The notes under the pieces are model-generated. The model did no database searches. It saw only the letters and a list, made by a program, of their open reading frames with translations, and was not told the DNA's origin. From an uncultured Acidobacteriota bacterium (GTDB lineage: Bacteria > Acidobacteriota > Terriglobia > Acidiferrales > UBA7541): a stretch of 64,000 nucleotides of DNA. The position numbers were made by a program, and so were the translations under genes. Positions within the stretch are counted from its first letter, which is position 1. Every line of letters starts with the position of its first letter. The DNA is taken from contig CAWHSG010000001.1 in assembly GCA_963831955.1 (NCBI GenBank), positions 903,140 to 967,139 of the forward strand, in the 5' to 3' direction. Below, one piece after another: positions 21,503 to 52,859 of the stretch.

Positions 21503-21528
21503 GATTGGTGCTCCTTTTCGCTACGGTT

Positions 21529-21556
21529 CAGGGCCGATGATTCAGCCCTGCGATAT
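21529..21556. repeat. solitary copy of the 33-bp array unit (hairpin CAGGGCCGA-TGAT-TCAGCCCTG + CGATAT)
   Basis: Matches the reverse complement of the 28312..28634 unit with about 2 differences. It lies 27 nt upstream of the rhodanese ATG. Confidence 0.65.
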
Positions 21557-22149
21557 ATTCTAGGACCGCCTAGCACGATCCGCCGCAAGATACCTCAAAA
21601 CGCTGCTAATTTGGATGCCCCGCTAGGGTTAGAGATTCCCGATTCTAGCCCAATCTTCGGGCGGTTGTAGGGGCGGCCTCAGGGTTTCAGCGCCCTCGGT
21701 GGTCTCCTAATCTGAGTTCGATGACAGTTTCGTAGAGGGATTCCGCATCCATCGCGGCGGAGCCGCGGCGTCACGGTGGGAGCCCCCGAATTTATTCGGG
21801 GGAGGAGCGCTTCAGCGCTCCGAAAAAGCGCCGCCCTTGATGATGCGTTTTAGCGCTGGGCACTCCGTCGCGAGCCGAATCGCATCATCTCGGTAATCCC
21901 ACATTCAGTTCCATTGTTGCGAACAACAAGCCAAGCTACTTTCAGGTGGGAAATTGTCGATGATGCCCCCGAAAATACTCAAAAAAATAAGCCATGGAGG
22001 CACGAATTGCGGGATTTCTGCTCGATACACCAAAACGAGTAGAAATCGACGCAACTCGCTGAAAACAAAGCACCGAGGTCGTTTCTACCCGTAGCGAAAA
22101 CGCACTCCGCTAGAAGATGGGTTTCGGCGATCCGAAGGGCACCCCAGCT

Positions 22150-24048: not shown

Positions 24049-24325
24049 AGAAACAGCCTTCGCAGCCAAAACAGCCTGGTACTAAGACCCCAGTACAACT
24101 TTTTTGGACCTTCCGAGCCATTGGCCGCTCCCTTTCCGTTATCTACCATCGTTTTGCGGGTTGGGAGCTGCGTTGCGGGGACGACGGTTCCGTAAGGAGC
24201 CGGGGCACGCTACCCAATCCGCCCAGCCCTCCCTGTCGGCAAACCCCTCCTGACCCCCAGCTGACAGGGGGGCATGTCTGGACGATTTCTAGGATCGTAC
24301 CGCTTTCGTAGCGGCGCGCCTTCAG

Positions 24326-25682
24326 AGTCTGTGTGAAGACTCGATGCCCCAGATTTAGTTTGCGTAATCGATCATGAGCTCTCAGGTTTCTTGCGCCTTC
24401 CGTGGATCAGCGCTTCGCGCGGCGCTTCTTGCTGTGCCACAGACGCGTCAGATTGTAGGCGGTGGCCGCCAGCGCCCACTCCACCGCTACCTGCGGCAGG
24501 CCGCGTCGCGCGAATGCGCGCCTCCCTCGCTGCGCTTTCAGTATTCCGATCACCGGTTCGACGATCGCTTTCCTGCGGCGGTAAATTCTCTGTCCCGCCG
24601 GATCGCGCAGCTTACGCCTCATGCGGCGATGCGCCGGATCGCTCGCTCGCGTCCGCAGCCGTCCTCCGCGATTCAACCAGCGCGCCAAATTCGAATCTGG
24701 AACGTAGGCGTCGATTTTTTTCTGCTCCAGTGCTTTCACCGTATCGATCGAGAAAAATCCGCTGTCCGCGCTCACGCGTCTAGGTTTTCGGCGGCACTGC
24801 CGCCGCACCTCGGCCACCATCGGCAGCAATGCTTGGTTGTCGGTGGTCTCCTGCGTCACGCGCTGCGCCAAAATCAAATGATCTTCGCTCACCGCCAGCG
24901 TGGCCGTGTAGCCCAACTTGAATCCGCCGCGCTCCTTCAAAAACCGGCTGTCCGCATCGGTGCGCGACAGCTTCTTCAAACCCGATTTCCGCAGCCGCTC
25001 GAGCCGCTCGGGAATCGCGGCCAGCTGCTCTTCCAGCCGTTCCATCACCGCCTCGCCCACATCCATTCCCGCGCCCTCATTCGGATCGTCCCGATCGCAT
25101 TGCTTCTGCCAGCGGCGGATCGCTCGCCGCGTGCGCGCCCGCTGATCCCGCAACTTCCGCTCCGTGTCGATGCGATCCCGCGAAGCGTTCGCCGCGATGC
25201 GCGTCGAATCAATGGCCACATGCCCGAGCTTCCCCATTTTTGCTTTCCGCGCCACTTCCACCACTTGCGTGAACAGATCGTTCAATCCTCGCGCGTGCCG
25301 GCGGCGAAAGTCATTCAATGTCCAGTGATCCGGTGTCGCGCCGGCCGCCAAATAGCGGAACGCCAAATCTTCGCGAAGGCGCTGCTCCAGACGCCGCGAA
25401 CTGGTCACGCCCAACGCATAGGCATACAACCACACCGCCACCAGCGACTCCGGCGCGTACGCCGGCCCGCCCTCCACGCCGTACTCCTCGCGGAATGCGC
25501 TCAGGTTCAACTTCGCCAGCACCTTGCGGATGTAAAAGCACAGATGCTTCGGCCCTAGCACATCGCGAACGCTCGGCGGCAACAAATACGCCTGGTCCGG
25601 GTGGTACTCCAAAAATTTAGCCATCGCGTCTCCTCTCCCGTGCAGTATAAGAGACGCGTCAAATCGAGTTCTCACACAGACT
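24326..25682 (-). mobile_element. IS element, IS5/IS1182 superfamily, copy 2 (1357 bp, intact)
   Basis: Same terminal repeats as copy 1. Flanked by direct CTTCAG at 24320..24325 and 25683..25688. Differs from copy 1 by the 1-bp indel and a handful of substitutions. Confidence 0.9.
24407..25624 (-). CDS. transposase, DUF772 N-terminal domain + DDE (IS1182-like)
   Basis: MAKFLEYHPDQAYLLPPSVRDVL..., YGVEGGPAYAPESLVAVWLYAYALGVTSSRRLE...PDHWTLNDFRRRH, and a C-terminal IVEPVIGILK...NLTRL. ATG 25624 is preceded by GGAGAGGAG. Confidence 0.85.
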   Translation of the reverse strand: MAKFLEYHPDQAYLLPPSVRDVLGPKHLCFYIRKVLAKLNLSAFREEYGVEGGPAYAPESLVAVWLYAYALGVTSSRRLEQRLREDLAFRYLAAGATPDHWTLNDFRRRHARGLNDLFTQVVEVARKAKMGKLGHVAIDSTRIAANASRDRIDTERKLRDQRARTRRAIRRWQKQCDRDDPNEGAGMDVGEAVMERLEEQLAAIPERLERLRKSGLKKLSRTDADSRFLKERGGFKLGYTATLAVSEDHLILAQRVTQETTDNQALLPMVAEVRRQCRRKPRRVSADSGFFSIDTVKALEQKKIDAYVPDSNLARWLNRGGRLRTRASDPAHRRMRRKLRDPAGQRIYRRRKAIVEPVIGILKAQRGRRAFARRGLPQVAVEWALAATAYNLTRLWHSKKRRAKR

Positions 25683-25813
25683 CTTCAGCCCGGCATCCGA
25701 CGAAGAAAATCTAACCTACACCAGGAATCGCGGCTGGACTCCTAGAGCAGAACACTTCCCACGATTTGACGCCCAGCTACGTTCTCGATTACGGATTTAG
25801 CATGAATTTGTAG

Positions 25814-25848
25814 TCGTAAGATGCCGGCCTGAAGGCGCGCCGCTACGA
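25814..25848 (-). repeat. REP-like palindrome family A' with CTGAAG loop (intact, uninterrupted IS target-type site)
   Basis: TCGTAAGATGCCGGCCTGAAGGCGCGCCGCTACGA. It is 31/35 identical to the site reconstructed by deleting IS copy 2. Confidence 0.8.
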
Positions 25849-25865
25849 ATGCGTTCCTAACTTTG

Positions 25866-28256
25866 TTAGAAGGACGTGCCGGCTAGGAAGATATCGCCTA
25901 GGCCTGTGGCGAAATTGGCTACGATGTTCGTTGCCGGCGAGATGAACGCTACCGTGTGGCCGTCACCGCTTACCGCCGGACGAAGCGAGACGTTGTTCGC
26001 CAGCGTTCCACCCAGCGAAATGCTTCTCAGCGACGTCCCCGGTATGCAGGAGGTGGTCGTCGAGCTCACCGCTCCCTCGCACGTATTCCGCACGAAGACA
26101 TTCTCAAATCCATTCGTGGTGCCGGGCACGAGATTCGTAGCCAACGATGCGAAAGCGATGAACTGTCCATCGCTCGAGTTCGTGACGGTCGAACTAATGC
26201 TGGGCTGCTCGCTCAATCCGTTTCCGGGCGTCACATTGTCGTTGGCAATCGATACAAGCGTCATGGAAGTAGTGCAGCCCGAGACAGCCAAGCCGCAAGT
26301 GTCGCGCACGTAGATCTGCTGGGTGCCGTCGGACGCGGTCTGCACCAGATTCGTTGCCGTGGACGCGAACGCCACGAAGCGCCCGTCTGAAGTAATCGAG
26401 GCTTGTCCGCTGGCGCCGTTCGCAGGAGTCGTGCCGTCGTTCGAGGAGGCGACCGTTACGATCTGCACGCAATCCGCGACGCCCGCGATACAGGTCGCCG
26501 TGTCGTAAATCTGCGGTGCCGGCGGCGTCACTCCGCTCACCAAGTTCGTGGCTGCTGAAGTGTAAGCCACGAACGCGCCGCTTCCCGCCGTGGCAGGCTG
26601 TGAACTCGGAGCATCCGCGGGCGTGACACCATCCGGAGATGAAACCAAAATCGTTTTTGGCGTGCAAGTCACCACGGTGGAAGTGAGATTCAAGCAGGTA
26701 TCGCGCAAATAAACCTGTGCGATACCGTTGGGGTTGACGCCGGAAATGAGATTGGTGGCCGTCGAAACGAAGGATACGTAGCGGCCATCCGGACTGATCG
26801 ATGGCTGGGTGGCGTCGGCATTTGCGGCGCTCACCCCGTCGGCAGCCACCGAGACGAGGGCTGTAGCGCTCGTGGCGCAAGTCCCGCCGCTGGTCGTCGA
26901 AGTCGCCGCGCAGCCGCTATGCAGGAAGATTTGCCGCGTGGTTCCTGTAAGGGTCGGGAAGTTCGGATCAAGATTCGTAGCGTGCGACGAGAAGGCGACG
27001 AATCCCCCGGTCGAGTCCATGGTCGGCTCGAGGCTGTCCGAATTTCCCTGCGTGCCGACCTGAGTCCCGCTGCCGGCCGTGCCGGAAATGCTGGCCAACT
27101 GCGTAGAGGGCAAGCAGGTAGCTTGGGCAAAGCAAGTATCGCGGACAAAAACATCCGGAACGCCGTTGGTATCGTCCTCGATGAGATTGCTCGAGGCCGA
27201 AGCGAACGCCACGAAGCGCCCCGTCGAGCTGATTCTGGGGCCCGAGCGGCTCAGATCGCCGATGCCGTTGTTGGCCGAAAACCCATTGAAGGAGTAATCG
27301 ACCAGGACGGGCAAGCCGGTATAGAGCAAATTGGTGGTAAGTGGCACGATGCCGTTGACCGCGAACTGCAATGGTTGGGATACTCCGCCGCCCGGGGCGG
27401 GATTCGAGATCGAGACTTGCGCCACTTGAGCGGCGCCAAGGTCCGCCTGGGTAAGAGTCGAAGTGATTGAGGAGCTGGAAGTAAACGTCGTGGGCCGTGG
27501 GCTTCCGTTGAAGAGCACCTGCGATTGCGGTACGAAGCCGGTTCCTGTGATGGTGAGTGTCGCATTATTGCCCCCCGCCGCTGCGCTGGTGGGCGCGATT
27601 TTTGTGAGCACGGGAATGGCATCGTTGATTGCCAACGGCAGCGTGCCGGTGCTGCCTCCGCCCGGAGCCGGATTCAAAACTCCAATGTTCAGCACGCCCG
27701 CCTGGATTAAGTCCGCGGCGGAGATGGTAGTCTGCAATTGCGTACCGCTAACGATCTGCGTTGAGCGGTTGTCGCCGTTCACGGTGATTTGCGAGAGCCC
27801 CTCAAAGTTGGTTCCGAAAACGTTCAGGGTAAAGCCAGTGCCGCCTGCCAGGGCGGTAGTTGGAGACATGCTGGTAATGGTAGGTGTTTCGCTCTCGATT
27901 TGTGTGATCGTGAAAATTATTTGGTTCGAGGTGCCGCCGCCGGGCGCGGGAGTCTGGACTTCGATGGTCACATCGCCGGGCGTGGAAACGAACGAGGAGG
28001 AGATATTAGCGGTCAGCGCGTTGCCGCTCTGAAAGATAGACTGGACGCCGCTGCCATTGAAAAAAATCACGGACTGGGGCGCGAATCCGTGCCCATTCAC
28101 GGTCAGCACGAATCCCGGCGAGCCCGCTGGAATGCTGGGCGGAGTCGTCGAAGCGACCGTTGGCGAGGGATTATTCGCAATGCCCTCGCCGCAGGAAGCC
28201 AGCAGCAGCGCCGCCACAAACACCAGCCGATTTTGGAGCGAACTCTTCCTTTTCAA
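25866..28256 (-). CDS. large lipoprotein with IPT/TIG-like repeats and TolB/PD40-like propeller repeats
   Basis: Lipobox LLLASCGEG. Four repeats of the type P..GGT.FTLTV.G.GF. C-terminal repeats GRFVAFAS.ATNLV...VFVRDTC. TTG start preceded by AAGGAG. Confidence 0.75.
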   Translation of the reverse strand: MKRKSSLQNRLVFVAALLLASCGEGIANNPSPTVASTTPPSIPAGSPGFVLTVNGHGFAPQSVIFFNGSGVQSIFQSGNALTANISSSFVSTPGDVTIEVQTPAPGGGTSNQIIFTITQIESETPTITSMSPTTALAGGTGFTLNVFGTNFEGLSQITVNGDNRSTQIVSGTQLQTTISAADLIQAGVLNIGVLNPAPGGGSTGTLPLAINDAIPVLTKIAPTSAAAGGNNATLTITGTGFVPQSQVLFNGSPRPTTFTSSSSITSTLTQADLGAAQVAQVSISNPAPGGGVSQPLQFAVNGIVPLTTNLLYTGLPVLVDYSFNGFSANNGIGDLSRSGPRISSTGRFVAFASASSNLIEDDTNGVPDVFVRDTCFAQATCLPSTQLASISGTAGSGTQVGTQGNSDSLEPTMDSTGGFVAFSSHATNLDPNFPTLTGTTRQIFLHSGCAATSTTSGGTCATSATALVSVAADGVSAANADATQPSISPDGRYVSFVSTATNLISGVNPNGIAQVYLRDTCLNLTSTVVTCTPKTILVSSPDGVTPADAPSSQPATAGSGAFVAYTSAATNLVSGVTPPAPQIYDTATCIAGVADCVQIVTVASSNDGTTPANGASGQASITSDGRFVAFASTATNLVQTASDGTQQIYVRDTCGLAVSGCTTSMTLVSIANDNVTPGNGLSEQPSISSTVTNSSDGQFIAFASLATNLVPGTTNGFENVFVRNTCEGAVSSTTTSCIPGTSLRSISLGGTLANNVSLRPAVSGDGHTVAFISPATNIVANFATGLGDIFLAGTSF

Positions 28257-28311
28257 ATGCCCGGCTCCTTGTTACTTGGTCCAAACGGTAACACCGCATG
28301 GTTATTACATT

Positions 28312-28634
28312 GCAGGGCTGAATCATCAGCCCTGACCTGATATCGCAGGGCTGAATCATCAGCCCTGACCTGGTATCGCAGGGCTGAATCATCAGCCCTG
28401 ACCTGATATCGCAGGGCTGAATCATCAGCCCTGACCTGATATCGCAGGGCTGAATCATCAGCCCTGACCTGATATCGCAGGGCTGAATCATCAGCCCTGA
28501 CCTGATATCGCAGGGCTGAATCATCAGCCCTGACCTGATATCGCAGGGCTGAATCATCAGCCCTGACCTGATATCGCAGGGCTGAATCATCAGCCCTGAC
28601 CTGATATCGCAGGGCTGAATCATCAGCCCTGACC
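28312..28634. repeat. tandem array: 33-bp unit x 9.8 (GCAGGGCTGAATCATCAGCCCTGACCTGATATC), each unit carrying a 9-bp-stem hairpin
   Basis: Unit starts at 28312, 28345, 28378, 28411, 28444, 28477, 28510, 28543, 28576 and 28609. The only difference seen is A to G at 28373. Hairpin is CAGGGCTGA-ATCA-TCAGCCCTG. Confidence 0.95.
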
Positions 28635-29025
28635 CGACCGCTTGATCACTCCGACCCGGTCACTTCGAACCCGCTCGATCGCGTGTGGGGCCCATAGAAG
28701 TGGCAACTGGAATAGGAGAGACTACTAGAGATGACGGATTCGGGCAATCCGGATGCCTGGGTATCGAGTGCCGCCGGCGTTCCTGTTTACCCCGACTAAT
28801 TCAAAGGGCTGGCGTCAGGCGACCGCCGCACGAGCCAGAGCCGTGGTCGTAAACACAGCAGAATGCCTCGATTGGCGTGGATACGCCGTAGCCAATGCGG
28901 GCGGCATATATCGTGTAAATTTCCTGTAATGATGGTTTTCCGTTGACTCCGCACCCGCGCGATGGGTTAAGCTGTCGCCGTGATGCGCAATCATGAAAAT
29001 TCGCTCGAAACCAGGACGTTGATCG

Positions 29026-30447
29026 ATGCAGTTGAAGATCACCCTCCGTCTTACGCTCGCAGTCTTGGCCTTTTGGGCGTTCGCGCCGCGGGTGTGCGCG
29101 CAGGATGCGCCCGCCGCTCAAGCGAGTGTTGAGTCACCTGCAGCTGACTCACCTGACACTCCCGGCGATTCCCCGGTAACACTTTTCCCGCACTCCGATA
29201 CAAGCCGCTGGTGGATTTCCGGGCAGGCGAACATTATTTTGCAGTGGCATCCGGCGTTTCATTCTCCCTACAGCGGCCCGAATAGCTTTCGCGCGGCCGG
29301 CGAGAACGATACATCGAAGGTTTACACGCTCTATACAGGCTTCGCTCTCACGCACACCACCGAAATTTTCGCCGATGTTGAGAGCGCCGGGGGCCACGGT
29401 TTGAGCCAGGCTCTGGGCCTTGCCGGATTCACCAATCTCGACGTGGTGCGGAATCCGGCGCTCGGGCCAACGCCGTATCTGGCGCGTCTCGTGTTGCGGC
29501 AAATCATTCCGCTTTGCAGCGAGCGCGTCGATGCGGAGCGCGGGCCGCTGGCGCTGGCCACCTCGCTGCCGGCGCGGCGGATCGAGATTCGCGTCGGGAA
29601 AATGAGCCTGGTGGATTTTCTGGATGTGAATTCGGCCGGCGGCGATAGCCATCTGCAATTTCTGAATTGGACGGTGGACAACAACGGCGTGTACGACTAC
29701 GCGGCGAACACGCGGGGCTACACCGAGGCCGCGATTGTGGAATTTGATACACGCTCGTGGTCGGCGCGCTTCGCCGAGGCCATGATGCCTAAAGTTGCTA
29801 ACGGTTTGCATCTTGACGCCGATCTATTCCGGGCACATTCGGAAAGTTATGAAGTTGAGTGGCGGGAACATTTTCTTGCCGGACGATCCGGAGTGATTCG
29901 CTTGCTGGGCTTTGAGAATCACGGGGACATGGGCAATTACCGCGAGGCCATTAATGATTTCCTTGCCGGGCAAGGCTCGCGGCCGGACATCATCGCCACG
30001 AGACAGCAGGGCCGCGTGAAATACGGCTTCGGCCTTAATGTGGAACAGGATCTGACTAAAGAATTCGGATTGTTTGCGCGGCTGGGTTGGGCCGACGGAC
30101 GTAACGAATCGTTCGCATACACCGAAGTCGATCGCACGCTGGAAATTGGGAGCTATTTTCACGGCGAGAGCTGGCATCGCAAGAACGATCGCGCTGGCGC
30201 GGTCTTTACCATGAACGGAATCGTGGCCGATCACGCGCGGTATCTGGCGCTCGGCGGCCTTGGTTTCCTGCTCGGCGATGGCGCCCTGACGTACGGGCAC
30301 GAGAAAATCTTCGAAGGCTATTACACGTTGCATGCCTGGCGCGGCATTTTCACCAGCTTTGATCTGCAACACATCAACAATCCCGGCTACAACAAAGATC
30401 GCGGGCCAGTCACGGTGCCGGGATTACGCCTGCACGTAGATTTCTGA
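29026..30447 (+). CDS. outer-membrane porin, OprB-like carbohydrate porin family
   Basis: Signal peptide ending VCAQDA. ISGQANIILQWHPAFHSPYSGPNSF and a beta-strand-like alternating pattern ending LRLHVDF. Confidence 0.6.
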   Translation: MQLKITLRLTLAVLAFWAFAPRVCAQDAPAAQASVESPAADSPDTPGDSPVTLFPHSDTSRWWISGQANIILQWHPAFHSPYSGPNSFRAAGENDTSKVYTLYTGFALTHTTEIFADVESAGGHGLSQALGLAGFTNLDVVRNPALGPTPYLARLVLRQIIPLCSERVDAERGPLALATSLPARRIEIRVGKMSLVDFLDVNSAGGDSHLQFLNWTVDNNGVYDYAANTRGYTEAAIVEFDTRSWSARFAEAMMPKVANGLHLDADLFRAHSESYEVEWREHFLAGRSGVIRLLGFENHGDMGNYREAINDFLAGQGSRPDIIATRQQGRVKYGFGLNVEQDLTKEFGLFARLGWADGRNESFAYTEVDRTLEIGSYFHGESWHRKNDRAGAVFTMNGIVADHARYLALGGLGFLLGDGALTYGHEKIFEGYYTLHAWRGIFTSFDLQHINNPGYNKDRGPVTVPGLRLHVDF

Positions 30448-30596
30448 AATGCACGGACCGTTGTAGCTGAGGGTGCTTTAGCCCTCCCCTGGAAAGCCAG
30501 CAATCCGCTTGCCCTTTTGGTTCGTCTAAGGGCACAATCGCGCGCCGTTGGGGGTTGGGACGCGTCGACGCGGTCAGAGACCACTGGGAGATTTTC

Positions 30597-50017: not shown

Positions 50018-50382
50018 CGTGGAAATGATGTGGAAATCCCGCATTTTGGGTTTCACCGGCGCTGACTCATCAGCCCGGACCCTGCGGGAGCGATATCAAA
50101 TCGCTTTCAGTGCAAAGGAGCGGTTAGGTCCCCAAGACCGCAATCACCCGAGGAGTGCGTGACTCCGTACGACGCCCGTAATGCGAGGCGGGATTGTGCA
50201 TAAAAGAATGGTTAAGGGCAAGAGAAAATTGAGCGAAGCCCATGCACAGCTTTCACATGCTATGCACAGGATTTCCACAGCGTCAAAATGGTACGAAATG
50301 CTCGATTTTTTCAACATTCGTTGAGAAAACGCGCACAAGGGCAGTGGAAAACTCCGGCGGAGAATTGCACAGGTGCTTGACA
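50018..50382. other. candidate oriC / dnaA promoter region (DnaA-box cluster plus AT-richer stretches)
   Basis: 9-mers CGTGGAAAT (50018), TGTGGAAAT (50029), TTGTGCATAA (50194, rc TTATGCACA), CCATGCACA (50240), CTATGCACA (50260), ATTTCCACA (50271) and AATTGCACA (50362). AT-richer segments lie around 50198..50236 and 50285..50332. Confidence 0.55.
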
Positions 50383-52451: not shown

Positions 52452-52859
52452 GAATTTGGGCCCACGAACCAGCCTAGCCAAAAAACAAGCCAAGGCCCGC
52501 CGAATATAATCACAGCAATATTTTAGATCTGGAAATTACAGCGGAGGAAGTCCACTTCGCCGTGCAGTGCTAGACCCTGAACCCCACGAATAAGTGGGTG
52601 CCCTGCGCCTGCTTTCAGGCTTTCCCGTACCGGCGGAACCGGCGAGGACATGCGCAACGGCAGGACGACGGGGGCTCCCGGGGATCCAGTGTTGGTTCAA
52701 ATAGGCCGTCACACCGGCACCTGCGTCGCAGGCCGCCTCCGCGAAACATTGTAGCAGGAATCATTCGGGCGACGCTGCGATGGCGCGCCATGAGCGGAGG
52801 TATCACCCGGAGGCGGTTTTGGTGTCCGCCTCCGGGTAAATTGCCGCACCGACTCGCGG

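Follow-up and report, generated by a model that had tools for sequence, protein, structure and literature searches.

The 64,000-nucleotide stretch of Acidobacteriota DNA analysed here (the window) carries, directly upstream of a minus-strand gene for a large secreted lipoprotein, ten consecutive and nearly identical 33-nt hairpins at 28312-28634. This array is most probably the product of a recent, lineage-specific, head-to-tail amplification of a 33-nt element resembling repetitive extragenic palindromic sequences (REPs), a reading to which we assign a probability of about 0.7. The element belongs to a dispersed family whose copies are polymorphic for presence and absence, and at the lipoprotein site the number of units ranges from 0 to 10 among relatives. 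The units are dispensable for an intact lipoprotein gene. We see in the array a rapidly evolving repeat of a type already known and nothing that amounts to a new system.

Tandem Repeats Finder delimits the array at 28312-28634 with a period of 33, 9.8 copies, 99% matches, 0 indels and a score of 639, in agreement on coordinates, period and consensus with an earlier note, made from the sequence of this DNA, that had described a near-perfect 33-bp × 9.8 array. The earlier count of ten copies stands, but the last copy is not truncated: with the terminal flanks included, there are exactly ten complete elements at 28307-28636 on the minus strand, head to tail and without spacer. With at most one mismatch allowed, the 33-mer is matched 9 times in the window and never in 100 shuffles, and the 22-nt hairpin core occurs 10 times within the array. 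The minus-strand unit reads C[G/A]GGT-CAGGGCTGA-TGAT-TCAGCCCTG-C[G/A]AT[A/G]T and has the parts previously described, a 9-bp stem (CAGGGCTGA/TCAGCCCTG), a 4-nt loop (ATCA) and an 11-nt linker that includes GATATC. Its sole variation within the array is the substitution already noticed at 28373, A to G on the plus strand, in the linker of unit 2. The folding energy of a single unit is -17 kcal/mol for RNA (z = -4 to -5) and about -10.5 kcal/mol for DNA; over both, z ranges from -4 to -5.7, and no shuffle folds as stably. All nine internal junctions are uniform (CGATA[T/C] abutting CAGGT, with one carrying the 28373 change), while the outer ends of the array retain the canonical CGGGT and CAATGT. 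Identical internal junctions fit the amplification of one unit, not ten separate insertions.

Several other identities for the repeat were discarded. A CRISPR array is excluded, as had been argued from the sequence, by units that abut without spacers and by identical linkers. The repeat is open in two minus-strand frames, which makes the 150-aa open reading frame (MIQPCDIRSGL)n at window positions 28171-28623 on the minus strand, overlapping the start of the lipoprotein gene in another frame, an artefact; a coding repeat is further contradicted by a Pfam match that is only sub-threshold, by a TAG that breaks the frame in unit 2 of a related locus (L013), and by the many relatives that are free of units. 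At its gathering threshold Rfam matched neither the array and leader nor any of ten related loci, and 28200-28800 has no match even at E ≤ 1; ARAGORN reported no tRNA or tmRNA. The idea that a 33-bp period would place every site on one face of the DNA holds only approximately: 33 bp is 3.14 helical turns, neighbouring units rotate by about 50 degrees, and the units therefore drift around the helix.

What places this repeat in a wider family is its occurrence far from the lipoprotein gene. A scan of species-representative genomes with CAGGGCNGATGATTCNGCCCTG returned 20 loci, of which 10 came from Acidobacteriota metagenome-assembled genomes (MAGs), at two or three loci per MAG, the others being unrelated terminator-like hairpins from other phyla. 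A transition-tolerant pattern used on metagenomes added 28 loci, about 17 of them belonging to the hairpin family. When the 300-nt left and right flanks were clustered, the MAGs and soil contigs together resolved into about 12 independent locus families. The search for the 33-mer beyond the array, which the earlier note had proposed, thus had a positive outcome: about 12 unrelated loci have the element, in either orientation and on the 5' or the 3' side of genes. Judging from the names on homologous proteins, the carriers are Candidatus Acidiferrales, class Terriglobia. The family consensus, given for the window minus strand, is CGGGT-CAGGGCTGA-TGAT-TCAGCCCTG-CAATAT, with CGATAT as the alternative 3' end: a 5-nt 5' tail, a 9-bp GC-rich stem, a 4-nt loop and a 6-nt 3' tail. 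Thirty distinct copies have a mean column identity of 92% over all 33 nt, asymmetric tails included. Since the element is exactly as long as the array period, the array consists of ten full elements in direct head-to-tail succession, and since its unit is a member of a dispersed family, it is not a purpose-built site. We found no description of such repeats in the Acidobacteria literature, only a note on tyrosine transposases flanked by terminal inverted repeats.

The window (64 kb) holds two or three loci of the element. Besides the array there is a solitary copy on the plus strand at 21524-21556, CGGTT-CAGGGCCGA-TGAT-TCAGCCCTG-CGATAT, with its core at 21529-21550 and one stem mismatch. In a BLAST alignment it is identical to the array unit at 28 of 29 positions, linker bases on either side included. 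The copy precedes the ATG (21502) of a minus-strand rhodanese gene by 21 nt and is oriented to that gene in the opposite way to the array and the lipoprotein gene. A degenerate relative at 50057-50081 on the plus strand, CGGCGCTGA-CTCA-TCAGCCCGG-ACC, is only weakly similar (nhmmer E = 0.08) and resembles the CCGGGCTGA...TCAGCCCGG variant of another locus (L022).

All copies found are intergenic, and their orientation to the nearest gene is mixed. The distance from the core to a start codon is 57 nt for the last hairpin of the lipoprotein array, 25 nt for the rhodanese copy and 87 nt for a copy before an amidohydrolase gene; one copy stands directly upstream of a gene for a TonB_C protein, and others follow stop codons at 13 nt (L026), 5 nt (L038) and about 78 nt (L004). 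The flanking genes, among them those for rhodanese, amidohydrolase, TonB_C, DedA/VTT and HsdM proteins, have no common function and include no regulator. Gain or loss can be seen at individual sites. Two tandem units in L002 form a clean 68-bp block that is missing from the orthologous L004, with a short ATGTT repeat, similar to the element's own end, at the junction; a third copy, 460 bp from the L002 pair, is orthologous in both. At the rhodanese site, the window and L051 have the copy, and L052, L053 and L055 lack it. Every multi-unit locus (L001, L002, L013, L021, L030, L037, L051 and the window) repeats its units head to tail every 33-34 nt, and apart from the window's array the genome and metagenome collections contain no locus that exceeds 3 units.

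Could the dispersed copies instead be the binding sites of a regulator? On this view a dimeric protein would bind the 9-4-9 palindrome as duplex DNA, in the manner of an operator or iteron, the dispersed copies would be its regulon, and ten adjacent sites would produce cooperative repression, activation or titration of the protein at the divergent lipoprotein and porin promoters. The core is indeed a perfect palindrome, many copies lie 25-90 nt upstream of start codons, the few copies per genome are regulon-like, the core is invariant at orthologous sites whose flanks vary, and one-sided stem changes are not biased to either strand, which is what reading of duplex DNA would predict. Yet the copies share all 33 nt, including asymmetric, non-palindromic tails and the loop, which indicates common descent by copying; a likeness far greater than that of usual regulon sites points to copy-and-paste behaviour. 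Several copies sit 5-13 nt past stop codons, between tandem genes, their neighbours have no common function and none encodes a regulator, six orthologues without the site retain the promoter block, and the porin is missing from some unit-bearing relatives. An iteron role, which the earlier note had considered, does not survive: the locus is chromosomal, in conserved synteny beside thrS, infC and rplT in 12 relatives, which argues against an origin, no replication gene lies nearby, and the hairpin motif has no match in viral contigs or the plasmid collection PLSDB, so that plasmid or phage iterons and a plasmid or phage origin were rejected as well. We regard a set of operators as unlikely, and amplification of a REP-like element as the better account.

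The history of the amplification is best read from what relatives carry at this site. Orthologues from a protein search, for which the lipoprotein was the query, together with the scan loci yielded 12 distinct orthologous upstream regions, the window included. There are 0 units in L049, L050, L056, L057, L058 (= L059, L060) and L061, 1 unit with a stem mismatch in L052, 2 units in L051, in L001 (= L055) and in L013 (= L053 = L054), 3 units in L037, and 10 in the window. The six unit-free relatives keep the promoter block, the ribosome-binding site (RBS) and the gene intact, and among them are the two that come closest to the window in protein identity (95% and 94%). In a neighbour-joining tree of the first 870 nt of the lipoprotein gene, the empty outgroups L058, L061 and L057 fall outside a clade of two subclades: L055, L053, L056 and L052, with 2, 2, 0 and 1 units, and the window, L037, L051, L050 and L049, with 10, 3, 2, 0 and 0. 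The units of the relatives are mutually diverged, whereas the ten in the window are near-identical. Both units of L051 share a derived loop change, TAAT, which points to turnover or homogenisation of units within a locus. Between the last hairpin and the RBS region of the window lies a 33-nt tail (28274-28306, minus strand CAATGTAATAACCATGCGGTGTTACCGTTTGGA...), found in every unit-bearing relative and absent, like the units, from L049, L050 and L056. The simplest history would be one gain followed by contraction, loss and expansion. Two expectations of the earlier note are borne out by this series: the near-identity of the units reflects recent expansion, relatives having 0-3 diverged units where the window has 10, and copy number at orthologous sites varies strongly between relatives. 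A third, that the array is an expression switch, cannot hold for an obligatory device, given the six relatives that have promoter block, RBS and gene intact without a single unit.

Where the array stands relative to the promoter was judged from conservation. Directly upstream of it, in the direction of the gene, is a non-coding block of ~130 nt (28637-28764, minus strand) that matches relatives at 94-95% identity, against about 82% for their coding DNA. We interpret this block as the likely promoter and first ~75 nt of the leader. Within it, the minus-strand promoter-like core TTGCCC-N17-TAGTCT (28719-28747; TTGCCC at 28747-28742, TAGTCT at 28724-28719) has both hexamers invariant in all 12 orthologues, one with 60% gene identity among them, and the invariant part of the 12-way alignment reads CAGGCATCCG..TTGCCC-N17-TAGTCT.TC.TATT. 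A 17-nt spacer is canonical for a -35/-10 pair. The core agrees with the sigma-70 consensus at only 7 of 12 positions, for which reason the sigma-70 scan did not list it, and the promoter call comes from conservation. In the intergenic region, the consensus promoter and terminator scan of 28000-29300 yielded nothing of use. A regulator might act at the conserved CAGGCATCCG that precedes the -35-like hexamer. A structured RNA in the block was considered and rejected, its fold being unremarkable (z = +1.1 and +0.1) and without an Rfam match. The stretch from the array to the RBS is not conserved in L037, making a promoter there unlikely, and in empty-site relatives the block leads almost directly into the RBS. 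This conserved core upstream of the array would place the array in the 5' leader. Transcription would then begin near 28712, with a leader of about 455 nt here against about 100 nt in empty-site relatives, and the array would span roughly +78 to +400, with the RBS about 40 nt past the last hairpin. Folded as RNA, the whole leader is predicted to form ten separate hairpins (z = -11.5). A transcribed multi-hairpin leader, one of the roles proposed earlier, fits the position of the promoter-like core and stays a sequence-based proposal.

If the leader is transcribed, the array might be the functional product itself, a dedicated repeat RNA whose hairpins act as a sponge for an RNA-binding protein or are processed like a type III ToxI antitoxin. 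Type III toxin-antitoxin repeat RNAs with 33-36-nt units exist, and the strong, regularly spaced hairpins of the leader, downstream of a conserved promoter-like core, would suit one. We consider such a function very improbable. The downstream gene encodes a 796-aa secreted lipoprotein with PD40 and TIG affinities, not a small endoribonuclease, so that a type III toxin-antitoxin locus was rejected, and PADLOC found no defence-model match among the flanking proteins. The repeat has no Rfam match, single units occur at unrelated loci in both orientations, close relatives carry only 0-3 units, and changes in the stem show no strand-specific signal.

That last point comes from the 30 distinct copies, in which 96.7% of stem cells are paired. 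Two-sided stem changes occur at pair 2 (A-U to C-G) and pair 7 (U-A to C-G), a number reached by 20 of 500 shuffles, and one-sided changes comprise 6 wobble and 9 unpaired cells without strand bias. Pairing or palindromic symmetry is thereby weakly supported, and no transcribed strand is favoured; strand-specific selection on RNA was rejected on the unbiased wobble and mismatch changes.

A different doubt concerns the number ten. Short reads cannot size a 323-bp run of identical 33-mers, and elsewhere in the genome and metagenome collections the maximum is 3 units; the element might be real and its count inflated or collapsed by assembly, the true locus having few units. The window's own proteins have no entry in the contig collection that would supply a second assembly for comparison. 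The private substitution in one unit and the distinct outer flanks of the terminal units, on the other hand, look like read-through sequence and unlike a collapsed or looped assembly graph. Three independent assemblies of one relative (L013, L053 and L054) agree on two units each, which means that the locus is assembled reproducibly when the array is short. A mis-sized array seems to us a small risk, and an inflated count would leave the identity of the element unchanged.

How might a REP-like element have reached ten copies here? We envisage a single insertion, probably already a pair, upstream of the lipoprotein gene in the ancestor of a subclade. Once two copies were adjacent, their number could change by slipped-strand mispairing or unequal recombination, with the hairpins probably helping; some lineages would thus have lost the units, others would have kept 1-3 diverged ones, and the window would have come to hold 10 that are near-identical. 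The array would most likely be transcribed as ten consecutive hairpins of about -17 kcal/mol each. Any effect on expression would probably be modulatory, through leader length, RNA stability, or polymerase or ribosome traffic, and not essential control. The weakest and most speculative step is the initial spread in trans, which was probably the work of an enzyme recognising single-stranded hairpins with asymmetric tails, such as an HUH/Y1 transposase.

Several observations weigh against this account. Classic REPs are present in hundreds of copies per genome, usually >100, and the genome scan found exact cores at only two or three per MAG, far below that abundance. A tblastn search of 488 kb with an approximate IS200 TnpA query found no Y1 transposase or REP-associated tyrosine transposase (RAYT), which is a weak test for a single-copy gene; its one weak match was a glyoxalase. 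The GTAG or CGTC tag of the REP superfamilies is absent from the 30 distinct copies, and head-to-tail pairs are reported to be negligible in the GTAG/CGTC families (PMC3733652). Filled and empty lipoprotein sites differ by more than the units, the 33-nt tail going too, and the original event was therefore not a clean insertion of the element. The place of the array in the transcript is deduced from the conserved promoter-like core. Finally, several orthologous sites keep the 22-nt core invariant while neighbouring bases, such as the ATAT tail, drift, which hints at host-level selection on the hairpin and which a purely selfish element leaves unexplained.

Such invariance would fit a hairpin that the host has kept as something a specific protein reads, on DNA or on RNA, with the array as a copy-number dial or titration sink on the lipoprotein gene. 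We hold this to be a long shot. If true, it would mean that a regulatory module has arisen from a domesticated mobile hairpin in an uncultured soil phylum.

The genes on either side are largely as the earlier note gave them. The lipoprotein gene (25866-28256, minus strand) encodes 796 aa from a TTG start and has a lipobox (LLASC) and PD40 beta-propeller repeats. Its description as a large IPT/TIG lipoprotein is right as to the lipobox and to homologues annotated as IPT/TIG; Pfam itself scores PD40, and TIG is a weak, sub-threshold match in the N-terminal part. The distances quoted earlier are accurate, with 55 nt from the array to the TTG (28256) and 391 nt to the ATG (29026) of the divergent OprB-family porin gene (29026-30447, plus strand). 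The AAGGAG RBS, too, is there; it occupies 28266-28271 of the minus strand and is kept by every one of the 12 orthologous loci. The porin gene is not linked to the element, as several relatives without porin keep the promoter block, with units or without. A comparison of window positions 28765-30501 with L001/L055, L056 and L057 shows that some relatives have the porin gene and others do not; those without it have a different signal-peptide protein instead, with the lipoprotein promoter block kept.

Downstream of the lipoprotein gene is an IS5-like insertion sequence, at window ~24322-25683, that is absent from every orthologous locus. Its transposase (24407-25675, minus strand) has DDE_Tnp_1 and DUF772 domains, and its 22-bp terminal inverted repeats read AGAGTCTGTGTGA..ACTCGAT; they are unrelated to the hairpin, and a miniature inverted-repeat transposable element (MITE) derived from this neighbour was rejected. 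A further inverted repeat of ~20 nt, CGTAGCGGCGCGCCTTCAG / CTGAAGGCGCGCCGCTACG at 24300-24322 and 25838-25858, brackets the insertion sequence plus about 150 nt beyond it, and is probably the terminator stem of the lipoprotein gene, split by the insertion. Elsewhere in the window a 6S (SsrS) RNA gene at 52545-52737 on the minus strand matches Rfam RF00013 over its full length with 50.8 bits against a gathering threshold of 46.4.

Other loci of the element had features of their own. L021 (1-1794) and L030 (4139-4718) share 99.3% identity as far as the end of a pair of hairpin units, past which the two contigs have nothing in common. L021 then runs on as the right flank of the DedA-locus block, a different element-bearing locus; the junction is either a recombination between element copies or a chimeric metagenome contig. 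The DedA-locus block is a conserved non-coding stretch of ~270 nt downstream of the DedA/VTT gene in L008, L009 (at 2340-2580), L014, L019, L023, L031, L040 and L043, in which one hairpin element lies between two terminator-like hairpins. The first of these hairpins covaries, GGAGAG/CTCTCC versus GGGGAA/TTCCCC. DNA past the block differs by genome, with a type I HsdM gene in L009; the block might mark an island boundary or encode a small RNA. Several hairpins (CCCCCG..CGGGGG, GGAGCGCTTCAGCGCTCC, GCGCTTTAGCGC) make up a second dispersed repeat, ~90-110 nt long, with a compensatory variant in the first stem. It occurs at window 21750-21860, about 200 bp from the solitary 33-nt element, at 3254-3364 of L004, 31-119 and 253-341 of L014, and 3582-3660 of L019, and in L009 as a tandem triplicate with a period of about 223 bp (1785-1873, 2008-2096 and 2267-2330). 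Its sole database signal is a weak HgcC-like match in Rfam (E = 0.085).

As far as we found in Rfam and the literature searched, this small palindromic repeat family of Candidatus Acidiferrales, an uncultured and widespread soil order, has not been described before. At one leader it provides a natural series of empty, 1-, 2-, 3- and 10-unit sites, usable for measuring how hairpins tune expression from a 5' leader and how arrays grow and shrink. It is also a caution for annotation: such an array should not be taken for a CRISPR, an origin or a gene, the spurious 150-aa open reading frame through it could be mis-annotated, and the locus is likely to be mis-sized in short-read assemblies.

Among known systems, the ToxI antitoxin RNAs resemble the array in being tandem 33-36-nt units directly upstream of a gene with which they are probably co-transcribed. 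Unlike in those systems, the downstream gene is not a ToxN/AbiQ-like nuclease (it has no Pfam nuclease or PADLOC match), no terminator separates array and gene, single units occur elsewhere, and relatives lack the array. Variable-number tandem repeats (VNTRs) are closer, in that a perfect tandem repeat lies upstream of a surface-protein gene and its unit number differs sharply, from 0 to 10, in close relatives, which is what slippage or unequal recombination would produce. In a VNTR, however, the unit is a locus-specific simple repeat, whereas here it is a pre-existing dispersed element; 33 nt is long for the unit of a classic phase-variable tract; and the variation is between species-level relatives and not within a population, while any effect on expression would be one of tuning and not an on/off switch.

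The nearest likeness is to REPs and to clusters of bacterial interspersed mosaic elements (BIMEs), as in Pseudomonas fluorescens SBW25 and E. coli. These too are short extragenic palindromes with unpaired tails (33 nt here), dispersed in both orientations, often past stop codons or in leaders, variable in presence between relatives and sometimes amplified into ordered tandem arrays. REP tandem arrays in SBW25, including some of 12 units, have been described (PMC3116915), and REPs are reported to be context-dependent tuners of transcription, termination and mRNA stability (bioRxiv 10.64898/2026.03.23.713779). Classic families differ in abundance, with hundreds per genome against the few exact copies seen here; Di Nocera et al. 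2013 recognise smaller families too, with 20-100 units or fewer (PMC3733652). REP doublets forming hairpins (REPINs) and BIMEs are inverted pairs, unlike the spacerless head-to-tail order found here, and REPIN/RAYT systems have a cognate single-copy RAYT gene with the repeats on its flanks; none was identified in the 488 kb of our weak test. The CGTC-tagged REPs (PMC3733652) have a similar 8-9-bp stem, a 4-5-nt loop and a short 3' tail, may form small families, and have a comparable unpaired tag ending in GTC, which would correspond to GGTC-AGGGCTGA... in an 8-bp reading of our stem: the conserved 5' tail CGGGT reads GGTC when the first stem pair is open. That superfamily likewise has no dedicated transposase known and is not reported from Acidobacteria (PMC3733652). 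Its tag is CGTC, TGTC or CCTC against GGTC/GGGT here, our element does not have A-T at both of the first two stem pairs and does not have CCA as its tail, and dimers in the GTAG/CGTC families are mainly head-to-head or tail-to-tail, whereas head-to-tail is the rule here. With no GTAG or CGTC tag, no preference for inverted dimers and a low apparent abundance, the element is best called REP-like and is left outside those superfamilies. In being a short palindrome with a stem-loop, extragenic and dispersed at unrelated sites, it fits the general definition of a REP-like repeat.

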